Shown here piece by piece: positions 25-15,313 of a stretch of DNA of 18,665 nucleotides; position 1 is the stretch's first letter, and each line of letters opens with the position of its first letter. Made by a program: the position numbers and the translations under genes. The stretch covers positions 1 through 18,665 of the forward strand of contig JBHIAT010000062.1 in assembly GCA_046758705.1 (NCBI GenBank), in the 5' to 3' direction. This DNA comes from Candidatus Bipolaricaulia bacterium (GTDB lineage Bacteria > Bipolaricaulota > Bipolaricaulia > JBHIAT01). The notes beneath the pieces are model-generated. The model was not told the DNA's origin, did not search any database, and worked only from the letters and a program-made list of their open reading frames with translations.

Positions 25-843
25 TTACCGAGGATTCCCGCGCAGTCTCCTAAAATTGGTATAAACTCTATTGATGAGCTCTTCGGTATCGATCTGTCTA
101 AGCTCTGCCAAGGTCCGAGCGACCTGAGCCACATTGGCGGGCTCATTGGCCTCATCCTCCGGCTGCCCGTAGAGCGGCATATAGGGTGAGTCGGTCTCGA
201 TCAGCAGACCATCCAGTGGAACATGGCGAGCGAATTCCCGTAGCGCAGTCTCAGTAGGATAGGTCATCGTCCCGCCGAATGACAGATAAAAACCCATATC
301 GAGAAGCTGGGTTGCTGCTTTATCATCTCCGTCAAAGTTGTGAACCACTCCGCCAACTCTGTGGGCTTTCTCCTGTTTCAGAATAGAAATAAGTGCTGAA
401 TTAGCCCCGCGGCAATGCATGTTCAGCGGCAATCCTAACTCGCAAGCCAGTTGGACCTGCTTCTGGAAGGCTTGCTCCTGCGCGTTGCGCAGATCTTCAT
501 TATCATGATAAGTCACACCGGTAGCGACATTATCTACGAAATCCAGCCCCACTTCGCCGATGGCCACGGTGACATCCTCACCGGCGAGACTCGAGAGCTT
601 CTCACGAAAATCATATGGAAAATTCTCCGCTGCGACCCAGGGGTGAACACCCACCGAGGCCAAAACTCGCTCATGCGTGGCAGCTATTTCAACCGTGTTC
701 GCCGATGACTGCAAATCCATGCCCACCGTGAGGATCCATCGAACGCTTGCTTCATCAGCACGTCTGAGGACCTGTTCCATCTCGTCAGCTGCGTATTGGT
801 CCAGGTGGGTGTGTACATCGGTGAGCTTGTCTTCCTGACGCAT
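25..843 (-). CDS. tatD: TatD-family metallo-hydrolase (amidohydrolase TIM barrel)
   Basis: Motifs DVHTHLD (HxH), GVHPW, IGEVGLDF, MHCR, VVHNF, IETDSPY, NEPANV. SD-like GAGGAGGT upstream; 32 bp after the GRE stop. Confidence 0.9.
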   Translation of the reverse strand: MRQEDKLTDVHTHLDQYAADEMEQVLRRADEASVRWILTVGMDLQSSANTVEIAATHERVLASVGVHPWVAAENFPYDFREKLSSLAGEDVTVAIGEVGLDFVDNVATGVTYHDNEDLRNAQEQAFQKQVQLACELGLPLNMHCRGANSALISILKQEKAHRVGGVVHNFDGDDKAATQLLDMGFYLSFGGTMTYPTETALREFARHVPLDGLLIETDSPYMPLYGQPEDEANEPANVAQVARTLAELRQIDTEELINRVYTNFRRLRGNPR

Positions 844-875
844 CCCTTTGCCTCACCTCCTCTCAGCAAACCCGT

Positions 876-3245
876 TCAGAACGACTGATGTTCCGTGCGG
901 GCGATGATCTCGTCCTGCAACGCTTCGCTGAGATCACAGAAGTAGTCGCTGTAGCCGGCCACGCGCACGATCAGGTCGCGGTATTGTTCCGGGTGCTGTT
1001 TGGCGGCGCGCAGCGTGTCCGCGTCCACGACGTTGAACTGGATGTGGTGACCGTCCAGCTTGAAATAGGTGCGTACCAGTTGAGCCAACTTATCCAGGCC
1101 GTCGTCTGCGAGCAGCTGGGGCGTGAACTTCTGGTTGAGCAGCGTCCCGCCGGTGCGCACGTGGTCCATCTTGGCCAGTGATCTGATCACGGCTGTCGGG
1201 CCACGTCGGTCGGCACCTTGCACGGGTGAAACGCCTTCCGAGAGGGGGACGCCGGCCTTTCGCCCGTCGGGTGTCGCGCCGATCACCGATCCAAAGTACA
1301 CGTGAACCGTGGTCGGCAGCAGGTTGATGTGATAGGTGCCGCCCTTGGTGTTCGGACGGCCATCAATCGCCTCGAAATAGGCTTCGAACACGGCTTGCAT
1401 CACATGGTCAGCATAATCATCGTCGTTGCCGTATTTGGGGGTTTTGTTCAACAGCCTCTGATGCATTCTCTCGTGACCTTCAAAGTTGTCTCGGAGAGCG
1501 GTTAGCAGGGCATCCATCGTCAACGTTCTTTGGTCAAAAACGTGATATTTTAGGGCGGTCAGGGCATCGGCCATTGTGCCCAGACCCACGCCTTGGATGT
1601 AGGTCGTGTTGTAGCGGGCGCCGCCGTCGTGATAGTCCTTGCCGGTGGCAATGCAATCGTCGATCAGTAACGACAGGAACGGCGCAGGCATATGTTGGGC
1701 ATACAGCCTTTCGATGAGGTTGTTGCCCCGTACCTTGATATCTACAAAATAGTTGAGTTGCTTTTCATAAGCCTCGAACAACTCCGCAAACGTCTCAAAC
1801 TTCGTGGGGTCTCCCGTTTCGAGGCCGATTCTCTGGCTCGTTTGGGGGTCAATGCCGTTGTTCAAGGTGATCTTCAACACCTTGGGCATGTTAAAGTAGC
1901 CCGTCAGGTTGTAATTCTCCTTCCCAAAGGCGCCCACTTCTACGCAGCCGCTGGAGCCGCCGTTCCGCGCGTCGGCCACCGATTTGCCTTGTCGAACCAG
2001 TTCCTGGACAATCAGGTCGCTGTTAAAGACGGAAGGCTGTCCAAAGCCCGTGCGAATGATGCGGGCAGCCCGTTTGATGAACCTATCGGGGTTCTTTTTG
2101 CTGACCTGGATGGACGAACTAGGCTGCAACAGCCGCATCTCCTCGATCACATCCAAAAGCAGATACGTGACCTCGTTGACGGCGTCGGAACCGTCTTCCT
2201 TCAAACCGCCCGTGTTAATCTGGGCAAAATCGGTATAGGTGCCGCTCTCTTGCGCGGTGACCCCCACTTTGGGCGGGGCGGGCTGGTTGTTGAATTTGAT
2301 CCAGAAGCATTGCAGCAACTCTTCGGCTTGCTCGCGGGTGAGCGTCCCCTGTTCCAGGCCCTGTTTGTAAAACGGATACAGATGCTGATCCAGACGGCCC
2401 GGGTTGAAGGCGTCCCAGGTATTCAGTTCCGTGGTCACGCCCAGGTGGACGAACCAGTAGTACTGCAAGGCTTCCCAAAAGTTCCTCGGTGGGTGGGCCG
2501 GCACGTGCAAACAAACCTCGGCGATCTGTTCCAATTCCTGTTTTCTCTGGGGATCTGTCTCTTGGTTTGCTAACTCGCGCGCTTTTTCGGCGTGGCGTTC
2601 CGCAAAGCGGATCAAAGCGTCGGCACAGATGAGCATCGCTTTGAGCTCCTCTTGCTTGTTGTAGGCGTTTGCATCGTTGAAGTAATCCAGGTTTTGCAGG
2701 CTTGTCTGAACCTCGCGCTTGAAATGGACGAAGCCTTTGTGGTAGATCTTGTCATCCAGGACGGTGTGGCCTGGGGCGCGTTGCTCCATAAATTCGGTAA
2801 AGATGCCGGCCTCATACGCCGCTTTCCACTCGTCCGTCATTTCTCTGAAGATAAGATCGCGCATCGATTTGCCCTGCCAGAAGGGAATGATGGTCTCCTG
2901 ATAGACCTGGCGGGCCTGCGGACTGACGACAAACGGGATCTTGGGCCGGGAATTCAGAATGTCCAGATCTTCCAGGCTATGGCAACAGAGCTCCGGGTAG
3001 GTGGGCGTTGCTTTGGGGGCCGGGCCTTTTTCGCCGACGATCAGTTCGCCTTCGTTGATACAGATCGGCTTATGCTCCATCAGGTACTGGAAAGCCAGGG
3101 CGCGGCGCACGGGCGCGGACACCGGTCCCAGATCCTGGCGGTAGAATTCGGTGAGCAGTTCGGCCCTCTCGGTCGAGATGGTGGGGATGGCATCCAGGCT
3201 TTGTTGTCTCAGACAAGCGACTCTTTCACTCACCTTCATGGACAT
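876..3245 (-). CDS. hypD: Glycyl radical enzyme, trans-4-hydroxy-L-proline dehydratase (HypD) type, 789 aa
   Basis: Gly loop RVAGYS and Cys loop SGCVE. HypD-characteristic segments FTEFMEQRAPGHTV, WDAF.PGRLDQHL, KFNNQPAPPKVG, ES.TYTDF, LTGY and LPTT match my recollection of C. difficile HypD. Start moved to ATG 3245, which has AAGGAGG 8 nt upstream; the ORF-track start at 3278 overlaps the activase. Confidence 0.88.
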   Translation of the reverse strand: MSMKVSERVACLRQQSLDAIPTISTERAELLTEFYRQDLGPVSAPVRRALAFQYLMEHKPICINEGELIVGEKGPAPKATPTYPELCCHSLEDLDILNSRPKIPFVVSPQARQVYQETIIPFWQGKSMRDLIFREMTDEWKAAYEAGIFTEFMEQRAPGHTVLDDKIYHKGFVHFKREVQTSLQNLDYFNDANAYNKQEELKAMLICADALIRFAERHAEKARELANQETDPQRKQELEQIAEVCLHVPAHPPRNFWEALQYYWFVHLGVTTELNTWDAFNPGRLDQHLYPFYKQGLEQGTLTREQAEELLQCFWIKFNNQPAPPKVGVTAQESGTYTDFAQINTGGLKEDGSDAVNEVTYLLLDVIEEMRLLQPSSSIQVSKKNPDRFIKRAARIIRTGFGQPSVFNSDLIVQELVRQGKSVADARNGGSSGCVEVGAFGKENYNLTGYFNMPKVLKITLNNGIDPQTSQRIGLETGDPTKFETFAELFEAYEKQLNYFVDIKVRGNNLIERLYAQHMPAPFLSLLIDDCIATGKDYHDGGARYNTTYIQGVGLGTMADALTALKYHVFDQRTLTMDALLTALRDNFEGHERMHQRLLNKTPKYGNDDDYADHVMQAVFEAYFEAIDGRPNTKGGTYHINLLPTTVHVYFGSVIGATPDGRKAGVPLSEGVSPVQGADRRGPTAVIRSLAKMDHVRTGGTLLNQKFTPQLLADDGLDKLAQLVRTYFKLDGHHIQFNVVDADTLRAAKQHPEQYRDLIVRVAGYSDYFCDLSEALQDEIIARTEHQSF

Positions 3246-3249
3246 AGAT

Positions 3250-4149
3250 TCAGCCTCCTTTCTTGACTGGCAAGCCAAGTCCTTGCAGAATTGCCGCGAT
3301 CTCGGCCATGCGTTCGTCTGAGGGTGGGTGGGTGTCAGCCAGCTTGTAGGTCTTGTTTAACCGATGGTACTTGTCCACGGCGGTGTGGTGATAAGGCAGA
3401 AGGTCCACCCGATCCAGACGGGGCAACGCGGTCGCAAACGCGCCGATTTGACGTACGTTCTCATCATCGTCATTGATCCCTGGGATGATAGGCACCCGCA
3501 GGACGATGTTGTGTCCTCGCGTCGCAAGCGCCCGTAAATTGTGCAAGATCAGCTCGTTGGATACACCGGTGAATTTGCGGTGCTTGACCTCATCCATCAA
3601 CTTGAGGTCGTAAAGAAACAGGTCTACGTATTCCCGGATGCTGTCCAAAGTTTTCCACGTTGCAAACCCGCAGGTGTCCACGGCGGTGTGAATTTCTTTC
3701 TCTTTGCAGGTCTGCAGGAGGGCAAGCAAAAAGTCTCGCTGTACAAGGGGTTCTCCACCAGAAAAGGTCACGCCGCCGCCGGATTCGTCGTAAAACGGGA
3801 TGTCGCGCTCAATCTCGACCATCACCTGGGCCACCGTCATCTCCCGACCCACGATCTCGCGCGCTTCGGCGTAGCAGGTCTCGGCGCAAGCGCCGCAAAG
3901 CGTGCATTTTTCTCTATCGGTGGATACAACATCGCCATCCATAGAGATCGCCCCCGGGGGGCAGACGGCCAGGCAAGCTCCACACCGGATGCAGCGGTTC
4001 TCACGGAACATCATTTCCAGTTCCAGGACCTGGCTTTCCGGATTGTGACACCACCAACAGCTTAAAGGGCATCCTTTGAAGAAGACGGTGGTCCGGATGC
4101 CCGGACCATCATGAATCGCGAACTTTTTGACGTCAAAAATTATCCCCAT
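3250..4149 (-). CDS. Glycyl-radical enzyme activating enzyme (radical SAM with ferredoxin-like insert), cognate HypD activase
   Basis: HDGPGIRTTVFFKGCPLSCWWCHNPES (CxxxCxxC), two CxxCxxCxxxC motifs (CIRCGACLAVC, CTLCGACAETC), GGVTFSGGEP, LLPYH. Stop lies 4 nt before the hypD start. Confidence 0.93.
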   Translation of the reverse strand: MGIIFDVKKFAIHDGPGIRTTVFFKGCPLSCWWCHNPESQVLELEMMFRENRCIRCGACLAVCPPGAISMDGDVVSTDREKCTLCGACAETCYAEAREIVGREMTVAQVMVEIERDIPFYDESGGGVTFSGGEPLVQRDFLLALLQTCKEKEIHTAVDTCGFATWKTLDSIREYVDLFLYDLKLMDEVKHRKFTGVSNELILHNLRALATRGHNIVLRVPIIPGINDDDENVRQIGAFATALPRLDRVDLLPYHHTAVDKYHRLNKTYKLADTHPPSDERMAEIAAILQGLGLPVKKGG

Positions 4150-4225
4150 GTTCTCAGAATATTATCCCCTAATCCATTGTGATGCTACAGTCGTCCGTTG
4201 TCAATCACCACGAAGTCTATGGGGC

Positions 4226-5194
4226 TCAATCGCTGAACAGATGACATCGGACGAAATGGTCGGGTTCGACCTCCATCATCTGGGGATCGACTTGGGTGCA
4301 AATCTCCATCTTCTTGGGGCACCGCAGGTGGAAGCTGCAACCGCTCGGTATATTGATCGAGCTCGGGACCTCTCCTTTGGGCATGATCTGTTCGGGCTTC
4401 AACTGCTCTTCGACCTCGGAGATCACCTGGATCGACGAGATCAACATCCTGGCATAAGGATGGAGAGGTTTTCTAAAGAACTTCTCTGTCGGCGCGATCT
4501 CACAGAGCTTGCCCAGATACATCACCGCGACTCTCGAGGACACGTTTCTGATCAGGCTCAGATCATGGGTGATGAACAGATAGGAGAAGTGAGAATCTTC
4601 CTGCAAGCTTGTCAACAGCTTCATGATCTTCGCCTGAACCGAGACATCCAACGAAGAAGTCGGCTCGTCCAGAACGACGAGGGACGGCTCCGTCGCCAGC
4701 GCCCGTGCGATGGCCACCCGCTGTTTCTGTCCGCCGCTGAGTGCTTGTGGATACTTATACGCGTAATCGGCGGGCAGTTCGACCATGTCGAGCAGCTCGA
4801 TCACCCGCTCCGTCCGATCCCTACGGTTGGAGTCCGAGCCATCGATGCCGTGTACCTTCAGGGGCAACTCCAGACTCTGCTTGATGCTCCGCTTGGGGTT
4901 CAGAGATGACCCCGGGTCTTGAAAGACGATTCGGATCTCCTTCCTTAAAGATTTGGAACGGTTCCTGATCTGGCTGATGTTCCGTCCTTTGAAGACGATC
5001 TCCCCTTCCGTCGGTCGATGCATTCCCGCGATCGTATAGGCGACGGTGCTCTTCCCCGAACCCGATTCGCCCACCAGGCCGAAGGTCTCACCGATCCTGA
5101 CCGAAAAGCTGACGCCATTCACGGCCCTGACGGTTCCCTGGGGGGTATCAAAGTACCTCTTCAGGTCCTTCACCGCCAATATCGCGTCCGTCAA
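4226..5194 (-). CDS. oppF: Oligopeptide/dipeptide ABC transporter ATP-binding protein (OppF/DppF-like)
   Basis: Walker A GESGSGKST, LSGGQKQR, VVLDEP, HPY motif and C-terminal GCSFHLRC..C..CH. Probable TTG start at 5194 overlapping the oppD TGA (TTGA), with GGAGGGAG upstream. Confidence 0.92.
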   Translation of the reverse strand: MTDAILAVKDLKRYFDTPQGTVRAVNGVSFSVRIGETFGLVGESGSGKSTVAYTIAGMHRPTEGEIVFKGRNISQIRNRSKSLRKEIRIVFQDPGSSLNPKRSIKQSLELPLKVHGIDGSDSNRRDRTERVIELLDMVELPADYAYKYPQALSGGQKQRVAIARALATEPSLVVLDEPTSSLDVSVQAKIMKLLTSLQEDSHFSYLFITHDLSLIRNVSSRVAVMYLGKLCEIAPTEKFFRKPLHPYARMLISSIQVISEVEEQLKPEQIMPKGEVPSSINIPSGCSFHLRCPKKMEICTQVDPQMMEVEPDHFVRCHLFSD

Positions 5195-6186
5195 GTTGAC
5201 TCCCTCCGATACAGGAAGCAAGCGACCTCATGGTCACCGTCATCACCCCTGGTGTAGAACGGGGGTTTGTCCTGTTGGCAGATGGGCATCGCATGTTCAC
5301 ACCGAGGATGGAATCGGCAGCCCTGTGGAGGCTGACGATAGTCTGGGATCGTTCCCTGAATCCCGTCGTTCATCTCCTCACCGGTGAGTTTGGGCACGCT
5401 CTCCAACAACCCTTGAGTGTAGGGATGCAGGGGATCGGAGAACAGATTTTCCACCTTTGCCTCCTCTACGATATTCCCGGCGTACATGATGTAGACCCGC
5501 TCGGTAAAGTTCCGGACGACGCCTAGAGAATGGCTGATGAGCAGAATCGAAGTTTTCTTCTTTTCAACCAGTTGATCTAACAACCTGAGTATCTGATATT
5601 GTACGGTCACATCGAGATTGGTCGTCGGTTCGTCGGCCAAAAGCAGTTTCGCACCGACACTGAGGGCTTCGCTGATGCAAATCCGCTGCCTCATCCCTCC
5701 GCTCAACTGTACGGGATAACTGTTTAGAATTCTTTCCGGATCCGGCAGGCCGGTCTCCCCAAGCACAGCGATCGAGCGCGCCCTGATCTCCTTTTTAGAC
5801 AGCCTCTTCCCCTCTGGGCTTCTCGATGAAGATTTGATGACCTCACCGAGTTGATGGCCCACCGTAAAGACCGGGTTCAGGGCGGCCAATGGGTCTTGGA
5901 AGATCGCACTGATCCCCTCCCGTCTCAGCCTTTGTCTGTCATGGGCATCCATCGTCAGGATGTTCTTCCCTTGGAAAAGGATCTCCCCAGAAGCAATTCT
6001 TGCGGTTGAGGGAAGAACTTCCAAGATCGACTTCACCAGGAGAGATTTTCCGCAGCCGGTTTCCCCCACCAAACCGACCTTTTCCCCCGCATCGATGGCC
6101 ATATTCACACCGTTCAACACGTTCAGCTCGCCTTCGAACGTCTTGAGCCAAACGTGTAAGTTTCTGACTTCAAACAACGCGGTCAT
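5191..6186 (-). CDS. oppD: Oligopeptide/dipeptide ABC transporter ATP-binding protein (OppD/DppD-like)
   Basis: GETGCGKS, IFQDP, LSGGMRQR, LADEPTTNLD, PLHPYT, GCRFHPRC. Confidence 0.92.
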   Translation of the reverse strand: MTALFEVRNLHVWLKTFEGELNVLNGVNMAIDAGEKVGLVGETGCGKSLLVKSILEVLPSTARIASGEILFQGKNILTMDAHDRQRLRREGISAIFQDPLAALNPVFTVGHQLGEVIKSSSRSPEGKRLSKKEIRARSIAVLGETGLPDPERILNSYPVQLSGGMRQRICISEALSVGAKLLLADEPTTNLDVTVQYQILRLLDQLVEKKKTSILLISHSLGVVRNFTERVYIMYAGNIVEEAKVENLFSDPLHPYTQGLLESVPKLTGEEMNDGIQGTIPDYRQPPQGCRFHPRCEHAMPICQQDKPPFYTRGDDGDHEVACFLYRREST

Positions 6187-6216: not shown

Positions 6217-7128
6217 TTAGACCTCCTCAACGGCAAACATATCTCGCAAGCCGTCACCGACCAGATTGAACGCCAACACAATCAACACAATGGCGAGCGC
6301 CGGGAATACGGCGATCCACCAGTCTGCAGGTAATCGGGTGGTTCCATCGGCCACCATCGTTCCCAGACCGGGCTTCGGAGGCTGCACGCCGAGACCGATG
6401 AAGCTCAACGCTGCTCCGACCAATATGGCAAAGCCCATGTCCAACGTCACCTTGGTCAGAATCGGAGCCACACTATTGGGCAGGATCTCCTGAAACAGGA
6501 TGTGAGCTTTGCTGGCGCCGGCGAGCTCGGCTTCACGCACGAACTCTTTATGGCGAAGCGAGGTGGTCATGGAGTAAACGAGCCTGGCGTACCACGGCCA
6601 CCACACCAACGATATCGCCATCATCTCGTTGAACAGATTGCGCTCCAGCATAGCGACGATCGCCAGGGCCAAGATCAACGGCGGCACCGCCAAGAAGATA
6701 TCGGTGATCCGCATAATCACGACTTCCACCCACGTATCCTGATAGTATCCGGCAATCAGGCCCAAGACGACCCCCGGCGGGACGCTGAGCCCCAGCACCA
6801 CCACCGCCAACATCAAAGAGAAGCGATAGCCGAAGATCACGCGGCTAAACACGTCGCGGCCGACGGTGTCGGTGCCAAAGAAGTGCACCGTGCTGGGAGA
6901 GAGGCTCGACTCACGGAAGTTGGTGAACGGCCCGGCATGCTCTGGGTAAGGCGTGATATAGGGAGCGAAGATCGCCACCACCACAATCAACAACAGGACA
7001 ACCAGTCCAAACACCGAGAGAGGGTTCAGGGAGAATCGGTGCCATCCCCTTAACAGACTTACCTTTCTTCTGGACAAAGCAGAGCTCAGCAGCGCTCCTC
7101 TCTCTTCCCTCTCTTCGACCAGGCTCAA
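6217..7128 (-). CDS. oppC: Peptide ABC transporter permease (OppC/DppC-like)
   Basis: HFFGTDTVGRDVFSRVIFG, EAA-type loop (EFVREAELAGAS..ILF.EILPN), FNLVGDGLRD, several TM helices. Start set to TTG 7128 (CAGGAGG upstream, TTGA overlap with the oppB stop); the ORF-track extension to 7296 is probably spurious. Confidence 0.9.
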   Translation of the reverse strand: MSLVEEREERGALLSSALSRRKVSLLRGWHRFSLNPLSVFGLVVLLLIVVVAIFAPYITPYPEHAGPFTNFRESSLSPSTVHFFGTDTVGRDVFSRVIFGYRFSLMLAVVVLGLSVPPGVVLGLIAGYYQDTWVEVVIMRITDIFLAVPPLILALAIVAMLERNLFNEMMAISLVWWPWYARLVYSMTTSLRHKEFVREAELAGASKAHILFQEILPNSVAPILTKVTLDMGFAILVGAALSFIGLGVQPPKPGLGTMVADGTTRLPADWWIAVFPALAIVLIVLAFNLVGDGLRDMFAVEEV

Positions 7129-8162
7129 ACCGCCCTCCTGTGTAGCCGGATCCTGGGGTCGAGAAATGAGATGACAATATCGACAACGAGATTGACGACG
7201 ACGAAGACGACGCCGATCACCAGAACCACGGCGATGATGGCGTTGAGATCTTTGTTCAGCATGGCGGTCACGGCGTAGCTGGAGAATCCGGGCCATCGAA
7301 ACACCAGCTCCACCAGAAACGCGTTGGACATCAGAAAGGCGAAATCCAAGCCCATGACTGCGACGGTGGGGATGAGCGACGGTTTGAGCAGATATTTGAA
7401 CAGAATAGACCGCCTGGGGACTCTGTACACCTTATGGGCCGCTATATAGTCCTTCTGCAGGTTCTCGATGATCGAAGAGCGCGTAATCCGGCTCTCCTGA
7501 GCGATGTGTGCGATGGCCAGGCTCGCCGCCGGCAGAATAATGTGCTTGAGCGCATCCAAAGCGACGATGGGTTTCCCGGCGATCAAACTGTCAAGGATGA
7601 GAAAGCCGGTGACACGAGGGGGTTCTCTCATGAGAAGGCTCATCCTTCCCACAGGAGGGATGAGCTCCAGAACATAACCAAAGATCAACACCATAAAGAC
7701 GGCCACCGCAAACGGCGGCGTGGCCACCCCCACATAAGAGATCAGCCGAGACAACCCGTCGAACCACGAGTTCCTAAAATAGCCCGCCAGCACGCCGATG
7801 AGCTGCCCGATCACCAGCGATATCAGGAAGGAAAACAGAATCAGTTCCACCGTGGCCGGCAGAAACCCCTTCAGATCGTCAACCACCGGTCGCCGAGTAT
7901 ACAGGGATTGTCCCAGATCTCCACGCAGCAGGGATCTGAACCAGGAGAAGTATTGAACAAGAAATGGGTCATCCAGGCGCATCTGTTCCCGAAGCTTTTG
8001 CACCTGGGCGTTCGTCGCCAGAGGTCCTAACGCCACCCGGGCGGGATCCCCCGGCACGGCCCTGGAAAAGGAGAAAATCAAGAAGGAGAGACCCAATAGG
8101 ACAAAGAAGGTTTGCAACAGCCTCGAAACGATATATCGATGGCTTCGGAATCTCCCGCTCAT
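7125..8162 (-). CDS. oppB: Peptide ABC transporter permease (OppB/DppB-like)
   Basis: PGDP, GDLGQS, PATVEL, HIILPA, VELVFRWPG, LDPRIR, hydrophobic TM segments. Confidence 0.92.
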   Translation of the reverse strand: MSGRFRSHRYIVSRLLQTFFVLLGLSFLIFSFSRAVPGDPARVALGPLATNAQVQKLREQMRLDDPFLVQYFSWFRSLLRGDLGQSLYTRRPVVDDLKGFLPATVELILFSFLISLVIGQLIGVLAGYFRNSWFDGLSRLISYVGVATPPFAVAVFMVLIFGYVLELIPPVGRMSLLMREPPRVTGFLILDSLIAGKPIVALDALKHIILPAASLAIAHIAQESRITRSSIIENLQKDYIAAHKVYRVPRRSILFKYLLKPSLIPTVAVMGLDFAFLMSNAFLVELVFRWPGFSSYAVTAMLNKDLNAIIAVVLVIGVVFVVVNLVVDIVISFLDPRIRLHRRAV

Positions 8163-8169
8163 ACCAATG

Positions 8170-8223
8170 AGGAGGGCGAGAGGCCGAGACCAACCGATCG
8201 GCCCGACCTGCCCTCGCCCTCCT
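8170..8223 (-). other. Intercistronic stem-loop between oppA and oppB (mRNA stabiliser or attenuating hairpin)
   Basis: Perfect 11-bp inverted repeat AGGAGGGCGAG (8170-8180) / CTCGCCCTCCT (8213-8223), plus an inner stem that pairs through G-U on the minus-strand mRNA. No U-tract. Confidence 0.6.
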
Positions 8224-8250
8224 TACCTCACTTATCGCGCATCGCGTTAC

Positions 8251-9936: not shown

Positions 9937-11046
9937 TCATTCGACGATCTGTAAGTCGCGTGTGCAGTTGTTCAGTCGCTTTGCTCCGGTCTCCGTCACG
10001 ACGACGATGTCCTCAACGCGCACCCCGAATTGGCCGGCCAGGTAGATCCCAGGCTCCACGGAGAACGCCATCCCCTGCTTGAGCTGAAGGTGATTCCCCT
10101 CAACGATGTAGGGCTCCTCATGGACATCAAGGCCGATACCATGGCCGGTGCGGTGGATGAATCGCTCGCCATATCCGGCGTCGGTTATCTCGTCACGTGC
10201 GACCCGATCGACTTGTTCAGCTTCAATGCCCGGTCTTATCGCCTGTACCGCCTTCTCCTGTGCGTTCTTGACGATCTCATAGATGGCCCGGATCTCGTCC
10301 GTGGGCTCTCTGCAGACGATCGTTCGCGTGATATCCGAACAATAGCCATGGATCCGGCATCCAAAATCGAAGATCACCACATCGCCCGGCTCGATCGTCC
10401 GCTGACCCGCCCGATAGTGCGGAAGGGCACTGTGGGGGCCGGAGGCCACCAACGTCTCAAACGCGATCTTCTCCGCCCCCCGTCGCCTCATCGCCGCTTC
10501 AAGCGCGGTGGCCAGAGCCAGCTCGGTCATCCCGGTGACTTTCGACTGGATGATCTCCTCAAACGCCTCATCGACTATAGCACCCGCTTCCTCCATGTAG
10601 CGAATCTCGTCCGTGGTTTTCTGCATGCGTAGCGGCACCATCGCCTGGGAGGCCAACGAGAAGTTGCCTCGCGGCAACGCCGTCTCCAACATGAGGAGGA
10701 ACGTTGCCCACATCCCGTCATCCACGAGAACCCGAGCCTCTCCCTCTCCCACCCCCAAGTCTGCGACAGTGCGCCCCAACAAGTCCATGGGGTCATCCTC
10801 ATCGCTCCAGATACGAACGTCAGGAAACGGCGACGCTTGTCTGATCTGATCCTTATACATCTTAGGGGCGATGAACAGGGGGTCCCCTTCCCGCGGCACG
10901 AGCAGGAGAAGCAGCCGTTCGCCGGGCTCATCAAAGAAGCCACTGAGATAGAGCATATTGGAACTGGGGAAGAGGGCCATCAGAGGGAATTCCAATTCGA
11001 TCATCAGCTTTCGAGCCTGAGCTACTCTATCCCTGTAGATTTCCAC
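9937..11046 (-). CDS. pepQ: Xaa-Pro dipeptidase/aminopeptidase (M24B, prolidase-like)
   Basis: Creatinase-like N-domain (SNMLYLSGF), PHY, DFG..GYCSDITRT, HRTGHGIGLDVHE, EPGIY, GVRVED. The dinuclear metal ligands are present. Confidence 0.9.
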   Translation of the reverse strand: MEIYRDRVAQARKLMIELEFPLMALFPSSNMLYLSGFFDEPGERLLLLLVPREGDPLFIAPKMYKDQIRQASPFPDVRIWSDEDDPMDLLGRTVADLGVGEGEARVLVDDGMWATFLLMLETALPRGNFSLASQAMVPLRMQKTTDEIRYMEEAGAIVDEAFEEIIQSKVTGMTELALATALEAAMRRRGAEKIAFETLVASGPHSALPHYRAGQRTIEPGDVVIFDFGCRIHGYCSDITRTIVCREPTDEIRAIYEIVKNAQEKAVQAIRPGIEAEQVDRVARDEITDAGYGERFIHRTGHGIGLDVHEEPYIVEGNHLQLKQGMAFSVEPGIYLAGQFGVRVEDIVVVTETGAKRLNNCTRDLQIVE

Positions 11047-11050
11047 ATGT

Positions 11051-11491
11051 TTACCCTTCTAATCGAGCGACGCTGACCTGCTCGATCCCTTGTTGCCATA
11101 CTCTTAGCCCGATTTCCTCTATGGTCTTCCACTGAGCCGAAGGGATACGCGCGAACACGTTGACCGGCAGACGCCCCCGGTGATCTCTGCTGACCTCAGC
11201 TCCATAATAGATTGCAATGGCTTCGGCGGCTTCTGAATCCTCCAGTTCCCACTCCTTCCAATAGATCACGTCACCGATGCTCATTTGCGTCGTCTGTTTT
11301 TCACGGGGAATCCTGCGTCCACTTTTAAGCGGGAAATTGATCTCCCGGCCGGACCACCTTGAATGATAGATCGTCGCCTCTAAGGGGAGCATATCGAGGA
11401 CGGATTCTACGGTTTTGGGCACGTTATCCGGCATCAACTCGGCCACCAGCTCACCCCCCCGCTCAAACCTAAACACGATCTTGCTCGGCAT
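11051..11491 (-). CDS. Cyclophilin-like fold protein (DUF3830-type), function unknown
   Basis: 146 aa. The pattern PKTV..VLDMLP....IYHSRWSGREI, GDVIYW, IAIYYG, VNVFARI resembles DUF3830/cyclophilin-like proteins. Tightly packed between hyuB and pepQ (11 and 4 bp gaps). Confidence 0.7.
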   Translation of the reverse strand: MPSKIVFRFERGGELVAELMPDNVPKTVESVLDMLPLEATIYHSRWSGREINFPLKSGRRIPREKQTTQMSIGDVIYWKEWELEDSEAAEAIAIYYGAEVSRDHRGRLPVNVFARIPSAQWKTIEEIGLRVWQQGIEQVSVARLEG

Positions 11492-11502: not shown

Positions 11503-13257
11503 TCAGCCGATTTGCCTCATCTTATTTCGTAGCTCCTCAGTCGCGTTCATGTCCACCTTCATCTCATTCTCATCGATGACGACTCCATAATCCTCTTTCG
11601 CCTTTGTCACCGATACATATCCGTTGATCACATCTTGCAGAACCGTTTGGGGGTCTCGCTCGAGCGGCGAACCGTAGCCCCCACCGCCGCCGGTCTGGAA
11701 GCTCACCACCTCATCTTCATAGAGGGGCAGGTTGGAGATCTTGCGCCAACGCTCTTCGTTGCCGTCTTTGCGATAGATCGCGGTGATGCTCGGCTTTCCA
11801 TCCTTTCCGCCGAACAGCCCCCAGGGCGGCGTGTACTTCACCCGATCCGTTGTTACCGTGAGCCCAGCCTCATGACCGATGATGTGATAATCCCGACGGA
11901 CGCCCAGACCACCGCGGAACTGGCCTGCTCCGCCGGAGTCCTGCTGGAGCTCGAACCGCTCCACGCGCCATGGATATCTTACTTCGACGACCTCGGCCGG
12001 CACGTTATAGGTGTCCCCTAAGTCCATGGAGAAGAGCGCCGGCTCTCCGTCCTCATCGGGCTTTCCGCCGTGGCCGCCGGCATCCCCCTCGGCACAGACG
12101 TAGTATCGGCCCGTCCGTGGGTCCGTTCCGTAGATGAAGTTCGCCATCGAATCCCCGAAGTGCCCGGCGCGTATACGATCCGGGATCGCCGGGGCCAGCG
12201 CTTTCAGAATCAGGTCCGGAATCGTGGTCGTCGGCGTCGGCCACATCGCCGTGGCCGCCGGGAATCGGGGCTTCAACAGGCTGCCCTCCGGAATCACGAT
12301 CTTCAACGGACGGAAGAAGCCCTCGTTGTTGGGCAGATCCGGCGTGGTCACGATCTTGAACCCGTATCGGGCTGAAGAGATCGTCGACGGTTCCGGGACG
12401 TTCATCGGTCCACGGCACTGGCGATCGGTGCCCGTGAAGTCGACCGTCATTTCCTCGTCCTCAACGGTGATGGTGACCTTCAGCTGCAGCTTATCGTCCA
12501 ACGGTGCATCGTCATTGCCGTCGCCATCGAGGATGGCCTCTGCAGAATAAGTTCCGTTGGGAATGCGACGGATGGCGGTCCGTGACATTTTATCTCCTTG
12601 ATCGAGGATCTCGTTTAGCGCCGCCAGCGTGACCTCAAGGTCATAGTCCTCGATGACCTCGACGAGGCGCTTGCTCCCCGCCCGCACCGCAGCAATCATA
12701 CCGCGGATGTCCCCGAGCACGGCATCCGGCACGCGCGTGTTGGCCCGGATCAGACGGAAGACGTCCTCGTTCGGTTCGCCCTCCATCATGAGCCGGACCG
12801 GCGGGAGACGAAATCCCTCTTGAAAGACTTCGGTGGTGTTGCTATACCAGCCTCCGGGGTAAATCCCCCCCATGTCAACGGTGTGGCCCCGGAACGCAGC
12901 CCACCCGCGGATCTCACCTTCAAAGAAAGCGGGACAGAGCACCACGAGATCGGGACAGTGTGTGCCGCCTCCGTTGTAGGGGTCGTTGCACAGGATGATG
13001 TCTCCGGGCTTAAGATTTTCACGCCCAATGGTATGATAAGTGGCTACGACGGCATCCGATAGGTTGGCAAGAAAGATAGGCAGCCCCGGCGTCTCCGCGA
13101 CCAGCTTTGCATCGCTGTCCAGTATGCCACAGCTGAAATCGACCACCTCATACAGAATGGGGCTATAGGCGGCCCGCTCCACAACCCTTCGGATATCACG
13201 ACTGGCCGCGATCAGCCGATGGCGGATGACTTCTAGAGTGATCGGATCTACCTTCAT
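11503..13257 (-). CDS. hyuB: Hydantoinase B / oxoprolinase family subunit (hydrolytic subunit of ATP-dependent lactamase)
   Basis: DPITLEVI, DFSCG, NDPYNGGGTHCPD, HTVDMGG, SGGAGQFRGGLG, PWGLFGG, GGGGGYGSPLER. SD AGGAGGG. Confidence 0.92.
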   Translation of the reverse strand: MKVDPITLEVIRHRLIAASRDIRRVVERAAYSPILYEVVDFSCGILDSDAKLVAETPGLPIFLANLSDAVVATYHTIGRENLKPGDIILCNDPYNGGGTHCPDLVVLCPAFFEGEIRGWAAFRGHTVDMGGIYPGGWYSNTTEVFQEGFRLPPVRLMMEGEPNEDVFRLIRANTRVPDAVLGDIRGMIAAVRAGSKRLVEVIEDYDLEVTLAALNEILDQGDKMSRTAIRRIPNGTYSAEAILDGDGNDDAPLDDKLQLKVTITVEDEEMTVDFTGTDRQCRGPMNVPEPSTISSARYGFKIVTTPDLPNNEGFFRPLKIVIPEGSLLKPRFPAATAMWPTPTTTIPDLILKALAPAIPDRIRAGHFGDSMANFIYGTDPRTGRYYVCAEGDAGGHGGKPDEDGEPALFSMDLGDTYNVPAEVVEVRYPWRVERFELQQDSGGAGQFRGGLGVRRDYHIIGHEAGLTVTTDRVKYTPPWGLFGGKDGKPSITAIYRKDGNEERWRKISNLPLYEDEVVSFQTGGGGGYGSPLERDPQTVLQDVINGYVSVTKAKEDYGVVIDENEMKVDMNATEELRNKMRQIG

Positions 13258-13270
13258 GATCCCTCCTTCT

Positions 13271-15313
13271 TCAGAGATTCAGGGTGATAATCAGGTTGCC
13301 ATATCGGTCGACGGAGCAGGTCTGATCGTCTTCGACGACGGTCGTGGCTGTCGGCTCCTCAATGATCGCTGGCCCGGGGATCACGTTTCCCGCCAGAAGT
13401 TTATCGCGCTGATAGATTTGAAAGTTCTGATACCGGCCGTCTCCTCGATAGACCTTCCGTTCCCCTAACCTGGCCTCGGAGGCTGGGGCCTCGTCTCCTT
13501 CATCTATCTCTTGCAGGATCGGCTTTTTCACCTTGCCGATTCCGTTGACCTTGAGCGAGACGATCTCCTTGGGCTCCTCCGGCGCGTTGTGTCCGTAGAC
13601 GCGAAGGTGAGTCTCATCGAAGCTTTTATCCAGCAACGCCTTATCGTCAGCCGTCAGTCTGGCGGGCGCCGGAACGGCCAACGTATGCTCCTGTCCAGTA
13701 TATCTCAGATCCATCTCATAGTTCATGACGATGTCTTCCTCCGAGATGCGCTCGCGCTCAAACAGCTCTTTGGCTCGCGTCTCCAGCTCTTGGAATATCC
13801 CGTTGATCGCTTCGACATCGACCTCGTCCAGGGGGTTGATATAGGTCTGGGTGAAGCCATGTCTCAGATCGGCCAACAGCATTCCCCAAGCGGAAAACAC
13901 GCCGGGAGACGGAGGAACGATCACCGTAGGGATGTTTAACTCTCGGGCGATCGCGGCCGCATGAACCGGTCCCGCACCACCGAACGCGACCATGGCAAAC
14001 TCCCTCGGGTCATAGCCACGCTTGACCGTTATCGACTGCAGCAACCCGGACATGTTGGTGTTGACGATCTTGATGATCCCCAACGCAGCCTCATCGGTGC
14101 TCAGGTCGAGGGGTTTCGCCACCTTTTCGATCGCTTCGTGGGCGAGCTGAGACGAGACCTCCATCTCTCCGCCCAAGAAGTACTCGGGATCGAGGATCCC
14201 CAGCTGCAGGTTCGCATCCGTCACCGTGGGTTCGACACCGCCGTGCAGATAGCATGCCGGACCGGGGTCGGCACCGGCACTCTGCGGTCCGACATGCAGG
14301 GCGCCGGCCTCATCGATCCAGGCGATGCTGCCGCCACCGGCGCCGATCTCACGCAGATCGACCGCAGGCACCATGATCGGACGCTCTTCGACCAGATACT
14401 GATCGGTGATCTCCGGCAGGCTGCCACGGATGATCGACGTTTTGGCCGTCGTCCCTCCCATGTCATACGATATGACGTTTTCATACCCGATCATGCCGGC
14501 GAGCTGGGCCGCGCCGATGGCGCCAGCGGCCGGGCCGGACTCCACCATCGCGATCGGAATCTCCCTGGCGACAGTCGATGTCATGACGCCCCCGTTGGAC
14601 TGCATGATCTGCAGATCGTTCTGAAAGCGGCGCTCGGTCAACTCCTGCTCCAGACTTCGCAGGTACCCCTGCACCACCGGCATGACATACGCATTCTGCA
14701 CTGCTGTGCTGGTGCGCTCATATTCATAGTAGCGTCGGGTAATCTGATGCGAGAGGGAGACGGTTGTCTCGGGCAACCGCTCATTGAGCAACCTGCCTAT
14801 CTCCTGCTCATGCCGAGGGTTGGCATAGGCGTTGAGAAGACAGATCGCTATTGATTCGACTTGCTCCTGTCGCAGAAACTCGACGATGCGATCGAGCTCA
14901 GAGAGGTCCAGGGGGATCAATACCTCGCCATCCGCGCCGATCCGCTCCTTGACCTCTAACCGAAGGTATCGAGGAACGAGGAGCGTTGGCTTCTTGTAGA
15001 GGGCGTTGTACATCTCCGTGCGATTGCTTCGCCCGATCTCCAGCACGTCCCTGAACCCCTCCGTGGTGATCAACGCCGTCTTGGCTCCTTTGCTCTCGAT
15101 CAAGGCATTGATCACCACCGTCGTCCCGTGAACCAAGAAAGAGACCTCGTCAAGAGGGACTCCGAACCTGTCCACGCTTTGAATCGTGCCAATGGCAGGA
15201 TTCTTCGGTGTGGAAGACACCTTGTTGACCTCTATCTTGCCGGTATTTTCATCGAGCAAGACACCATCGGTAAAAGTCCCACCTACATCCGTGCTTAACC
15301 TATACCTATACAT
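13271..15313 (-). CDS. hyuA: Hydantoinase A / oxoprolinase family subunit (ATP-binding subunit)
   Basis: DVGGTFTD, HGTT, ESGPAAG, DMGGTT, IGAGGGS, GPQSAGADPGPACY, PTVTDA, FGGAGP, RYTGQ. Confidence 0.93.
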   Translation of the reverse strand: MYRYRLSTDVGGTFTDGVLLDENTGKIEVNKVSSTPKNPAIGTIQSVDRFGVPLDEVSFLVHGTTVVINALIESKGAKTALITTEGFRDVLEIGRSNRTEMYNALYKKPTLLVPRYLRLEVKERIGADGEVLIPLDLSELDRIVEFLRQEQVESIAICLLNAYANPRHEQEIGRLLNERLPETTVSLSHQITRRYYEYERTSTAVQNAYVMPVVQGYLRSLEQELTERRFQNDLQIMQSNGGVMTSTVAREIPIAMVESGPAAGAIGAAQLAGMIGYENVISYDMGGTTAKTSIIRGSLPEITDQYLVEERPIMVPAVDLREIGAGGGSIAWIDEAGALHVGPQSAGADPGPACYLHGGVEPTVTDANLQLGILDPEYFLGGEMEVSSQLAHEAIEKVAKPLDLSTDEAALGIIKIVNTNMSGLLQSITVKRGYDPREFAMVAFGGAGPVHAAAIARELNIPTVIVPPSPGVFSAWGMLLADLRHGFTQTYINPLDEVDVEAINGIFQELETRAKELFERERISEEDIVMNYEMDLRYTGQEHTLAVPAPARLTADDKALLDKSFDETHLRVYGHNAPEEPKEIVSLKVNGIGKVKKPILQEIDEGDEAPASEARLGERKVYRGDGRYQNFQIYQRDKLLAGNVIPGPAIIEEPTATTVVEDDQTCSVDRYGNLIITLNL

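Follow-up and report, generated by a model that had tools for sequence, protein, structure and literature searches.

A conserved hyuAB-DUF3830 gene module joined to HypD in an uncultured vent bacterium: a candidate route for ring-closed proline and hydroxyproline compounds

An uncultured vent bacterium was found to carry a cluster of 12 co-directional genes (25-15313, minus strand), the first nine of which form a conserved catabolic module, joined here to HypD, its activase and a specialised TatD-family hydrolase. The cluster probably imports a ring-closed proline or hydroxyproline compound, opens it at the expense of ATP and feeds hydroxyproline breakdown; that the module is tied to proline/hydroxyproline catabolism is very likely. 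The window (the whole stretch of DNA analysed) is an entire contig of 18,665 bp from an assembly of 319 contigs. According to the ORF listing and the Pfam and NCBIfam scans, the genes are ordered as HyuA, HyuB, DUF3830, an M24 Xaa-Pro-type peptidase, a five-part Dpp/Opp-type ABC importer, HypD activase, HypD and the TatD-family hydrolase (Table 1). From hyuA to tatD, the intergenic gaps, based on ORF coordinates with refined starts, were 13, 11, 4, 72, 88 (the largest), 0 and 30 nt, a 31-nt overlap, and 76, 4 and 32 nt. The first-pass annotation, which had described 12 co-directional genes that overlap or lie less than 90 bp apart, was thus borne out, and its gene identities were correct. The junction between atpF and the activase gene was spanned by contigs from three separately assembled runs of one study; thus, the join between the hyu-opp and hypD parts is not an assembly chimera of one contig.

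Table 1. Features of the hyuAB-DUF3830-hypD region, with positions in the window.
Feature	Position	Strand	Evidence or remark
hyuA, ATP-binding alpha subunit, hydantoinase/oxoprolinase/caprolactamase-type, 680 aa	13271..15313	-	Hydant_A_N, Hydantoinase_A, Hydant_A_C (Pfam)
hyuB, beta (hydrolytic) subunit, 584 aa	11503..13257	-	Hydantoinase_B 564 bits (Pfam)
DUF3830, small cyclophilin-like protein, 146 aa	11051..11491	-	PF12903 74.2 bits, cut-off 26
M24B Xaa-Pro dipeptidase/aminopeptidase-like metallopeptidase, 369 aa	9937..11046	-	Peptidase_M24 242.8 bits and Creatinase_N
Substrate-binding protein, predicted secreted, family-5 (Dpp/Opp/Nik-type), 537 aa	8251..9864	-	SBP_bac_5 184.6 bits
ABC permease, DppB/OppB type	7125..8162	-	BPD_transp_1 and BPD_transp_1_N
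ABC permease, DppC/OppC type	6217..7128	-	OppC_N and BPD_transp_1; likely start TTG 7128 behind AGGAGG (start-codon scan)
ABC ATPase, DppD/OppD type	5191..6186	-	ABC_tran and oligo_HPY
ABC ATPase, DppF/OppF type	4226..5221	-	ABC_tran and oligo_HPY
Gap before activase gene, 76 nt	4150..4225	-	promoter-like site TTGACA-17-CACAAT at 4204..4176
Glycyl-radical enzyme activase, radical SAM, 299 aa	3250..4149	-	TIGR02494 385.7 bits, cut-off 174
HypD, trans-4-hydroxy-L-proline dehydratase	876..3278 (likely start ATG 3245)	-	NF043068 1349.8 bits, cut-off 1100
TatD/YcfH-family metal-dependent hydrolase	25..843	-	TatD_DNase 235.7 bits; TIGR00010 214.3 bits, cut-off 206
hyuA upstream region	15314..15453	-	promoter-like site 15383..15356 and two direct repeats
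Divergent SARP/BTAD-TPR transcriptional regulator	15454..16341	+	BTAD, Trans_reg_C, TPR domains

The conservation of the cluster was evaluated in 122 loci that surround a close homologue of DUF3830 (42 from genomes and 80 from metagenomes), which fell into 98 non-redundant groups at ≥97% DNA identity; 55 of these had a locus of ≥12 kb and are referred to as long groups. Among these 98 groups, the array of hyuAB, DUF3830, M24 and Opp with or without hypD, for which the first-pass annotation had proposed a neighbourhood search, was recovered as a conserved unit. HyuB was encoded in 83 groups, HyuA in 66 (orthologues of 66-80% identity), the substrate-binding protein in 62, M24 in 53, TatD in 22 (homologues of 50-75% identity, in both orientations) and HypD or its activase in 20. 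The corresponding counts for the long groups were 53 for hyuB, 50 for hyuA, 46 for the binding protein, 43 for the ATPases, 38 for M24, 18 for hypD and 17 for tatD. The hypD link is therefore not unique to one genome, and the linkage is far beyond chance because it recurs in many loci. The earlier proposal of hyuAB, M24, Opp and HypD as one unit stood only in part: judged by gene content, the invariant core is hyuA, hyuB and DUF3830, the last always adjoining hyuB, whereas M24, the importer genes (43-46 of 55) and hypD are common in its vicinity but dispensable. All 42 genome loci came from MAGs (Bipolaricaulota/Acetothermia 11, Thermotogae 9, Spirochaetota-type 8, Chloroflexota-type 7, others 7), and a strong DUF3830 orthologue was present in only 3 of 40 class-level relatives. 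The carriers are many uncultured bacteria, with labels of mostly anaerobic lineages, and the core is a widespread, patchily distributed unit, repeatedly wired to proline/hydroxyproline catabolism.

This wiring took several forms. At least five arrangements linked hypD and its activase gene to the cluster: the pair lay upstream of hyuA, behind atpF, behind tatD, in divergent orientation, or behind a proline-racemase gene. M24 was also present in 16 of the 18 hypD-positive long groups. In other loci, genes of the proline-racemase family (five groups), proline dehydrogenase or D-amino-acid-oxidase-like genes stood in hypD's stead. One locus (L130) had the order hyuA-hyuB-DUF3830, aldo/keto reductase, Pro_racemase, Pro_dh, activase and hypD; in another (L043), hyuA-hyuB-DUF3830 was followed by Pyr_redox_2, DAO, a DHDPS-family gene and Pro_racemase. 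Two further loci (L041 and L095) carried a paralogous module, DUF3830-M19 dipeptidase-hyuA'B'. A dipeptide intermediate is favoured, because the nearest solved structures to M24 are those of Xaa-Pro peptidases and because, in the paralogous module, a dipeptidase of another family (M19) takes the corresponding place. M24 was absent from 17 of the 55 long groups, and in L043 and L130 the core lay directly beside genes for free proline/hydroxyproline catabolism, with no peptidase or peptide importer within 16 kb; therefore, a product that needs no dipeptidase is also possible.

The HyuA and HyuB proteins belong to the superfamily of their names, with complete A (N, core and C) and B domains encoded in adjacent genes. 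The best NCBIfam match of HyuA was the caprolactamase alpha model (573.9 bits), and HyuB scored 297.2 bits against the beta model; both are below the CapAB equivalog cut-offs (NF050156/NF050157, 1000 bits each). The best solved relatives of HyuB were N-methylhydantoinase 7HK5 (322 bits) and caprolactamase 6YRA_B (264 bits). In excerpts of Otzen et al. 2018 (PMC6061476), the authors expect caprolactam to be hydrolysed via phosphorylation of its lactim tautomer, and suggest that many annotated 5-oxoprolinases are perhaps genes for lactamases or cyclic dipeptide hydrolases. Neither a HyuAB acting on a diketopiperazine nor, as the first-pass annotation had supposed, a described hyuAB-pepQ-opp-hypD cluster was found in the searched literature.

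For the third core protein, DUF3830, 255 homologues were found, and an alignment of 24 sequences contained 45 invariant columns. Its AF2 model (pLDDT 83.7) matched 3KOP (Foldseek E 2e-10), the Pictet-Spenglerases KslB/McbB (approximately 2e-7) and true cyclophilins (approximately 3e-4). The window protein did not match Pfam Pro_isomerase, and its hhalign alignment with E. coli PpiB was weak (9% probability); it spanned the AP-TV...FH motif and placed YHSR over FHRV of PpiB, with Ser in the catalytic Arg column and Arg one position later. We know of no DUF3830 member with a known function, and the role given to it below is a guess.

The best solved relatives of the M24 protein were the Pyrococcus dipeptidase 1WN1 and the Thermococcus Xaa-Pro peptidase 4FKC (293 bits each). 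In the alignment to 1WN1, read by eye, the positions expected for the five metal ligands of the family (Asp, Asp, His, Glu, Glu) matched. The protein missed the PepQ and aminopeptidase equivalog cut-offs (233 versus 630 bits for archaeal PepQ; 218.9 versus 393 bits for PRK09795). The importer belongs to the Dpp/Opp family (SBP_bac_5, two permeases and two ATPases with oligo_HPY) and missed all importer equivalog cut-offs in NCBIfam. The N-terminus of the binding protein reads, by eye, as a signal peptide. In an alignment of the window protein and 10 other orthologues with E. coli DppA, at 22-27% identity, an invariant His stood in the Arg355 column and V/T/A/I/S in the Asp408 column. Both positions were confirmed as Arg and Asp in the DppA sequence; in DppA, Asp408 and Arg355 hold the free amine and carboxylate of the peptide. 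Because equivalents of these residues are lacking at this level of identity, an uncharged ligand is favoured.

HypD exceeded its equivalog cut-off and scored 1116 bits against C. difficile HypD 6VXC, the next glycyl-radical enzyme reaching 585. Its GCVE and RVAGYS sequences aligned with the same motifs of 6VXC, i.e., the Cys/Glu catalytic pair and the glycyl-radical motif; the residues are presumably C434, E436 and G765, numbers that fit 6VXC if its extra 20 residues are assumed to be an N-terminal tag. The radical-SAM activase gene lies directly upstream of hypD and scored slightly under the HypD-activase equivalog cut-off (NF043069, 420.3 versus 425 bits). The TatD protein scored 146 bits against E. 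coli YcfH 1YIX. The class-level relatives mostly had one TatD, with 34-43% identity to the cluster protein, and one genome (G019) encoded an extra copy of 61% identity on the same contig as its DUF3830 gene. The twelfth gene is thus a cluster-specific extra paralogue, not a bystander. The TatD paralogue has no part in the working model presented below.

Regarding regulation, the promoter-like site in the 76-nt gap agreed with the consensus at 10 of 12 positions and is a consensus match only, and no terminator-like site was detected in this gap; hypD may be transcribed separately from the upstream genes. Upstream of hyuA, two direct repeats GGRATGATGATC, 22 nt apart (15445..15434 and 15423..15412), were read as a putative SARP operator, and the divergent SARP/BTAD-TPR protein is a candidate local regulator. 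In 36 of the 98 groups (33 of the 55 long groups), an XRE-HTH and cupin regulator replaced the SARP regulator.

Our working model runs from diketopiperazine import through HyuAB opening and M24 to HypD, and is put forward tentatively, at a little below even confidence. The secreted binding protein and ABC importer would take in an uncharged ring-closed dipeptide, the likeliest being a 2,5-diketopiperazine, cyclo(Xaa-Pro) or cyclo(Xaa-Hyp). HyuAB would use ATP to phosphorylate the lactim of the sole N-H amide (Pro/Hyp-CO-NH-Xaa), and subsequent hydrolysis would yield linear Xaa-Pro/Hyp with the imide bond still cis. The DUF3830 protein might act on or hold the product or the substrate, by cis/trans isomerisation, by blocking re-cyclisation or by epimerisation. 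The M24 prolidase-like enzyme would then cleave Xaa-Pro/Hyp, HypD would convert free hydroxyproline into P5C, and the P5C reductase encoded away from the cluster (contig C141) could turn P5C into proline. By chemical reasoning, Xaa-Pro dipeptides cyclise readily and ring opening is unfavoured, and coupling to ATP is therefore sensible. That diketopiperazines cyclo(Xaa-Pro/Hyp) are the substrate is itself a guess which could well be wrong; it is favoured because the proposed HyuAB mechanism needs an N-H lactam and because opening leaves Xaa-Pro/Hyp, a prolidase substrate. The M19 dipeptidase that replaces M24 in the paralogous module, and the loss of the two DppA residues from the binding protein, speak for it as well. 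Since lactim phosphorylation has been proposed for the HyuAB family (PMC6061476, in excerpt), only cyclo(Xaa-Pro/Hyp) with one N-H amide fits; cyclo(Pro-Hyp), the substrate originally named first, has two tertiary amides and is disfavoured as a misfit to this mechanism.

The best surviving alternative, although unlikely, is the import of a 5- or N-substituted hydantoin or another proline-related lactam, which HyuAB would open as N-methylhydantoinase does, with DUF3830, M24 or TatD processing the N-carbamoyl or amide product and freeing proline, hydroxyproline or a related imino acid. Such a substrate would suit the best solved relative of HyuB, the core-only loci beside proline/hydroxyproline genes, and a paralogous hyuAB-ABC cluster in the same genome that contains a hydantoin racemase and DUF917. 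Also in its favour are an NCS1 permease (hydantoin/allantoin family) between hyuB and DUF3830 in two groups (L003 and L007), an Asp/Glu/hydantoin racemase gene after atpF in three and a creatininase-family gene in three. A Peripla_BP_4-type ABC system served as another alternative transporter in three groups; these NCS1, Peripla_BP_4, racemase and creatininase neighbours suggest hydantoin-like rings no less than diketopiperazines. However, the frequent partners are dipeptidases (M24 and M19), no N-carbamoyl-amino-acid amidohydrolase was found among the neighbours scanned (66 of the 168 listed flank ORFs and further scanned neighbours), and we know of no natural source of proline or hydroxyproline hydantoins.

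Still less probable is an operon for linear collagen-type peptides, in which the importer and M24 would handle Xaa-Pro/Xaa-Hyp di- and tripeptides, HyuAB would recover spontaneously formed 5-oxoproline and DUF3830 would be accessory. The importer is indeed of the peptide type and M24 prolidase-like, the HyuAB family includes 5-oxoprolinases (Pfam names; excerpts of PMC6061476), and Pro-Hyp is an abundant, poorly hydrolysed hydroxyproline peptide according to parts of Huang et al. 2018 (PMC6219649). On the other hand, hyuAB-DUF3830 is invariant and the importer and M24 are dispensable, whereas an operon for peptide uptake plus a helper enzyme would show the opposite pattern, and 5-oxoproline is not used by caprolactamase (PMC6061476, in excerpt), whose NCBIfam model is the closest. 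The binding proteins also lack the DppA residues that hold the free amine and carboxylate (22-27% identity alignment), and three other HyuB paralogues in the genome could serve as 5-oxoprolinase.

Import of the pyroglutamyl-blocked peptides pGlu-Pro/pGlu-Hyp, with HyuAB opening the N-terminal lactam to give Glu-Pro/Hyp for cleavage by M24, is improbable. It falls under the broader idea of a lactam-blocked peptide in the first-pass annotation, and the missing Asp408 equivalent suits a ligand without a free amine; yet the Arg355 equivalent for the C-terminal carboxylate is replaced as well, and to our knowledge no HyuAB family member acts on peptide-bound pyroglutamate. The pGlu ring does have the N-H lactam required by the mechanism (excerpts of PMC6061476). 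That hypD-activase-tatD is an independent unit adjoining an unrelated hyu-opp operon by coincidence is highly improbable, since, despite the promoter-like site and the lack of a nearby hypD in 37 of the 55 long groups, a pairing that recurs across 20 of 98 groups, in no fewer than five gene orders, is hard to square with chance, and other proline/hydroxyproline genes replace hypD elsewhere.

Under the diketopiperazine reading, the cluster provides a candidate, open to testing, for the degradation of cyclic dipeptides, about which little is known. In the excerpted text of Perzborn et al. 2013 (PMC3852281), none of 11 diketopiperazines was cleaved by 15 peptidases; cyclo(L-Pro-L-Tyr) was degraded by no tested strain. 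It is rather doubtful, although conceivable, that the cluster represents the first genetically defined route of diketopiperazine catabolism, with HyuAB as an ATP-driven diketopiperazine lactamase and DUF3830 as an obligatory partner that either isomerises the cis Xaa-Pro/Hyp product or stops the ring from closing again. If true, the module would link heat- or microbe-made proline/hydroxyproline diketopiperazines to the radical (HypD) and other hydroxyproline pathways, and would be patchily spread over uncultured lineages, with labels of mainly subsurface, sediment and vent anaerobes.

Among known systems, the window HyuAB resembles Pseudomonas jessenii CapAB (6YRA) and N-methylhydantoinase (7HK5) in its two subunits, three HyuA domains and full-length HyuB domain, and its alpha subunit is nearer to lactamase than to acetophenone carboxylase models (574 versus 332 bits). 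Unlike CapAB, it scores well under the caprolactamase equivalog cut-offs (574 and 297 versus 1000 bits), and, unlike both enzymes, the cluster HyuAB invariably has a DUF3830 gene as its partner and, in most cases, lies with a peptide-type importer and a prolidase-like gene. The DUF3830 model shares the cyclophilin-like barrel with the Arthrobacter DUF3830 structure 3KOP and with KslB (TM-scores of 0.82 and 0.73, for a predicted model), whereas sequence identity to 3KOP, KslB and McbB is ≤25% and the Pictet-Spenglerases are twice as long. The cluster importer shares its five-component family with E. coli DppABCDF, and the M24B peptidase has a counterpart in PepQ; in contrast to them, the window binding protein is without the Asp408 and Arg355 equivalents of DppA, and its importer and M24 miss all importer and PepQ equivalog cut-offs. 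As in Clostridioides difficile HypD/HypD-AE (6VXC), the window HypD passes the equivalog cut-off, keeps the Gly/Cys/Glu motifs and has an adjoining activase. A term search of the full text of Huang et al. 2018 (PMC6219649) gave zero occurrences of 'prolidase', 'transporter', 'oxoprolinase' and 'dipeptid'. While C. difficile hypD has an adjacent P5C reductase gene, the window hypD has no neighbouring proC, the P5C reductase being encoded on another contig, and, unlike the C. difficile system, hypD and its activase gene sit downstream of a hyuAB-DUF3830-M24-ABC array.

An ORF list and domain scans of the window resolved twelve genes on the minus strand between positions 25 and 15313, followed by a divergent regulator gene and a transposase gene. 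The intergenic spacings from hyuA to the TatD-family gene were 13, 11, 4, 72, 88, 0 and 30 nt, an overlap, and 76, 4 and 32 nt. The junction between the second ATPase gene (atpF) and the activase gene was bridged by separately built contigs from three runs of one study, so that the twelve co-directional genes with gaps under 90 bp or overlaps, as described in the first-pass annotation, were confirmed by the ORF list, the domain scans and the three-run contigs. The window is an entire 18,665-bp contig of an assembly of 3.7 Mb (319 contigs, 93.9% complete), and the runs holding it were labelled as hydrothermal vent metagenome. Around the IS701-family transposase gene, at 17205/17237 and 18611, the run contigs broke or continued differently from the window; the element seems to occupy other genomic settings as well, or to vary within the community. 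The summed contig depth over 15576-16198, within the SARP gene, was 2-3 times as high as in the adjacent bins of runs X1-X3, which probably reflects similar sequence elsewhere in the community.

Features of the window, with the basis of each assignment
Feature	Position	Strand or orientation	Basis or remark
hyuA	13271-15313	minus	Pfam/NCBIfam
hyuB	11503-13257	minus	Pfam/NCBIfam
DUF3830 protein	11051-11491	minus	Pfam/NCBIfam
M24 peptidase with Creatinase_N domain	9937-11046	minus	Pfam/NCBIfam
Family-5 binding protein, secreted	8251-9864	minus	N-terminal signal peptide read by eye
Permease 1	7125-8162	minus	Pfam/NCBIfam
Permease 2	6217-7128	minus	Pfam/NCBIfam
oligo_HPY-type ATPase 1	5191-6186	minus	Pfam/NCBIfam
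oligo_HPY-type ATPase 2 (atpF)	4226-5221	minus	Pfam/NCBIfam
Glycyl-radical activase	3250-4149	minus	Pfam/NCBIfam
HypD	876-3278	minus	Pfam/NCBIfam; likely start ATG 3245
TatD-family hydrolase	25-843	minus	Pfam/NCBIfam
SARP/BTAD regulator	15454-16341	divergent from hyuA	Pfam/NCBIfam
DUF433 gene	16606-17061		Pfam/NCBIfam; alone between regulator and IS element
IS701-family transposase gene	17315-18511		Pfam/NCBIfam; beyond SARP regulator

No terminator-like site was found in the gene-to-gene gaps of the array. The 76-nt atpF/activase gap contained a promoter-like site matching the consensus (TTGACA-17-CACAAT). This gap and the region upstream of hyuA had no common 8-10-mer, and thus gave no sign of a shared operator. 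Two 12-nt direct repeats (GGRATGATGATC), 22 nt apart, were located at 15412-15445 in the SARP/BTAD-hyuA intergenic region, ahead of a promoter-like site (15383..15356), and could be where the SARP regulator binds. A long GC-rich inverted repeat occupied the 88-nt gap 3' of the binding-protein gene (8163-8250) and may form a hairpin that stabilises or attenuates the mRNA, as is common in ABC operons. A strong terminator-like hairpin was also present near the DUF433 gene (minus strand, 16472..16437).

The HypD protein scored 1349.8 bits against NF043068 (cut-off 1100) and 1116 bits against C. difficile HypD (6VXC), with the next enzyme at 585 bits; the GCVE and RVAGYS motifs were kept, and we regard its assignment from sequence as secure. 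The activase exceeded the cut-off of the general model and fell 5 bits short of the HypD-specific one. HyuA and HyuB were domain-complete, and no curated equivalog fitted them: the caprolactamase models gave 574 and 297 bits, respectively, at a cut-off of 1000 each, and the closest solved structures for HyuB were N-methylhydantoinase (322 bits) and caprolactamase (264 bits). The M24 protein was closest to archaeal Xaa-Pro peptidases (293 bits), with matching metal-ligand positions in the alignment. Four HyuB genes were present in the window's genome. Another of its contigs (C22; locus L051, 1-20000) carried a paralogous cluster with genes for a homocysteine S-methyltransferase, HyuA, HyuB, SBP_bac_5, two permeases and two ATPases, as well as an Asp/Glu/hydantoin racemase, a HyuA-like protein, DUF917 (S-Me-THD-like), M24 and a second SBP_bac_5.

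The distribution of the cluster was established with a 24-sequence DUF3830 alignment as the query, which found 42 loci in species-representative genomes, all of them MAGs, and 80 metagenomic loci. These loci were then searched by tblastn with the twelve proteins of the window plus 21 accessory proteins (HSPs covering at least 40%, with minimum identities of 60% for hyuA/B, 45% for M24 and 50% for the importer). Loci with DUF3830 DNA at least 97% identical were merged into 98 groups; in 55 of these, the long groups, at least one locus was 12 kb or longer. Genes for hyuB were found in 83 groups (53 long), hyuA in 66 (50 long), the binding protein in 62 (46 long), M24 in 53 (38 long), the ATPases in 47 (43 long), an XRE-HTH plus cupin regulator in 36 (33 long) and tatD in 22 (17 long). 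The hypD and activase genes occurred in 19 and 20 groups, each in 18 long ones. Since many short contigs cannot show neighbours, the counts over all 98 groups are lower bounds. The linkage of hyuAB, DUF3830, M24 and importer with hypD therefore recurs and is not unique to one genome. HyuB orthologues were 70-86% identical between loci labelled as different phyla, and a strong DUF3830 orthologue was found in only 3 of 40 class-level relatives of the window's genome, a pattern that fits a horizontally spread accessory module. A tandem duplication, hyuA-hyuB-hyuB'-DUF3830, was observed in loci L004, L012, L071, L072, L077 and L079, both copies being 79-86% identical to the window's hyuB; L004 and L012 were labelled Bipolaricaulota or Acetothermia, and the metagenome loci were unlabelled. 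Another second hyuA/hyuB pair (45-49% and 34-38% identical to the window's, respectively) lay 3' of atpF in 11 to 14 groups.

At least five arrangements linked the hypD and activase genes to the cluster. The two genes lay upstream of the regulator and hyuA (e.g., L006, L018, L055, L089), immediately 3' of atpF in the window and in L069, downstream of tatD (L025/L116, L097), in divergent orientation (L124) or after a proline-racemase-family gene (L130). M24 was also present in 16 of the 18 hypD-positive long groups. Proline-racemase-family genes were found in five groups. In L130, hyuA-hyuB-DUF3830 was followed by aldo/keto reductase, Pro_racemase, Pro_dh, activase and hypD, and in L043 the same core was followed by Pyr_redox_2, DAO, a DHDPS-family gene, Pro_racemase and aldehyde:ferredoxin oxidoreductase. 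These independent joins to several kinds of proline and hydroxyproline enzymes argue that the module would deliver proline, hydroxyproline or a close derivative. Of the interpretation initially proposed, the cluster and its hydroxyproline link are thus real and recurrent, in at least five gene orders, and the cyclic Pro/Hyp dipeptide is a candidate substrate. Two further routes were considered and set aside. The similarity of L043 to the classical D-hydroxyproline route is a resemblance only, as its DHDPS-family gene passes the dapA cut-off (224 vs 206). The flank of L017 (aconitase family, ILVD_EDD, OCD) was dropped as a 3-hydroxyproline route after the NCBIfam scan, which returned an ordinary aconitate hydratase (865 bits vs 612) and a dihydroxy-acid dehydratase fragment.

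Upstream of the cluster, a GH127-family (beta-L-arabinofuranosidase family) gene was observed in L023 (2-1276), where it adjoins the hypD activase gene, and in L117 (at about 539). GH127-family enzymes target the arabinose attached to hydroxyproline in plant cell-wall glycoproteins, and such a neighbour would hint at a plant or algal source of hydroxyproline. One Spirochaetota genome carried an MttB-superfamily methyltransferase gene upstream of the cluster (L014, 3709-5163); this superfamily includes proline-betaine methyltransferases.

As a candidate substrate, we tentatively favour a diketopiperazine of the type cyclo(Xaa-Pro/Hyp). According to Otzen et al. 2018 (PMC6061476), the HyuAB family is expected to work by phosphorylation of the amide in its lactim form, with hydrolysis as the second step. 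Such a mechanism requires an N-H amide, so that in cyclo(Xaa-Pro) only the Pro-CO-NH-Xaa bond would be eligible; its cleavage by HyuAB would yield Xaa-Pro, a prolidase substrate. The same requirement disfavours cyclo(Pro-Pro) and also cyclo(Pro-Hyp), one of the substrates suggested in the first-pass annotation. ATP coupling would offset the ready re-cyclisation of Xaa-Pro dipeptides. Perzborn et al. 2013 (PMC3852281) reported that ordinary peptidases leave diketopiperazines uncut and that cyclo(L-Pro-L-Tyr) was degraded by no tested strain. Otzen et al. 2018 (PMC6061476) suggested that lactamases or cyclic dipeptide hydrolases may be encoded by many of the genes annotated as 5-oxoprolinases. 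Downstream of the main cluster, L041 (10001-15287) and L095 (17310-20432) held a paralogous module, DUF3830 (45-53% identity)-M19 dipeptidase-hyuA'-hyuB', with hyuB' mapped in L041 only; a dipeptidase of a different family thus takes the equivalent place of M24, which we count in favour of a diketopiperazine. When the binding protein was aligned with E. coli DppA, at low identity, the Arg355 column was occupied by His, and the Asp408 column by a small or hydrophobic residue, in the window and 10 other orthologues. We take these DppA residues to be those holding the peptide carboxylate and amine, and their replacement fits a ligand without free termini.

The absence of M24 from 17 of the 55 long groups counts against a diketopiperazine, as do the cores of L043 and L130, which adjoin enzymes for free proline and hydroxyproline and there have neither a peptidase nor a peptide importer. 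TatD as a substitute for the absent M24 was rejected, as tatD occurred in 6 of 17 M24-negative vs 11 of 38 M24-positive long groups. Other neighbours in some loci were an NCS1 permease, an ABC system of the Peripla_BP_4 type, a hydantoin-type racemase or a gene of the creatininase family, and the paralogous hyuAB cluster on C22 combines a hydantoin racemase with DUF917. A hydantoin-like compound or another lactam is consequently a serious rival substrate.

The DUF3830 gene, 11 nt from hyuB in the window, was the one most tightly bound to it. The predicted model (pLDDT 83.7) was a cyclophilin-like barrel, and its closest structures were, in order, the uncharacterised 3KOP, the Pictet-Spenglerases KslB and McbB, and true cyclophilins. 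Compared with E. coli PpiB at the profile level, the protein showed only a weak alignment over its N-terminal AP-TV...(Y/F)H motif, with Ser instead of Arg at the catalytic Arg column. The 24-sequence alignment contained 45 columns invariant across several phylum-level labels, a large share of which hold His, Arg, Glu, Asp or Trp; this would suit an enzyme or a specific ligand binder. We speculate that DUF3830 could isomerise or epimerise the cis Xaa-Pro product or the ring itself, or else guard against re-closure. The window's genome, at 93.9% completeness, yielded no canonical cyclophilin (PF00160), and a search for longer forms returned no protein fusing DUF3830 to another domain, which is weak evidence.

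A TatD match was obtained in 38 of the 41 genomes searched, and in all but three relatives the best copy was 34-43% identical to the window's. The class-level relative G019 had an extra copy (61%) that shares a contig with the DUF3830 gene of G019 and lies about 7 kb from it, and the window's genome had a second TatD fragment on another contig. Judged by these identities, the tatD of the window is other than the housekeeping copy.

Diketopiperazines are common natural products that form readily from proline peptides, and to our knowledge hardly any genes for degrading them have been identified; the cluster provides a specific set of widely conserved genes on which such degradation can be tested. 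Literature queries on DUF3830, hydroxyproline dehydratase with hydantoinase, diketopiperazine with oxoprolinase, and HypD with prolidase and gene cluster gave no match outside subscription journals and preprint supplements, in agreement with the initial remark that no described hyuAB-prolidase-importer-hypD cluster was known. A named diketopiperazine or cyclic-dipeptide hydrolase appeared in passing mentions only. HypD was described as co-located with P5C reductase in Huang et al. 2018 (PMC6219649), and a term search of that text gave no instance of 'prolidase', 'transporter', 'oxoprolinase' or 'dipeptid'. The cluster is a candidate for the upstream route that supplies HypD in settings other than the gut; it also suggests a possible first function for DUF3830 and a TatD-family paralogue seemingly recruited into metabolism. 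Even with another ring as the substrate, the recurrent wiring to three kinds of proline and hydroxyproline enzymes narrows the search. In comparison with known systems, the window's proteins missed the curated caprolactamase, PepQ and Dpp equivalogs, although the families themselves are known. What appears new is a partner protein, together with a putative substrate class, in an ATP-dependent ring-opening catabolic cluster assembled from known part families.
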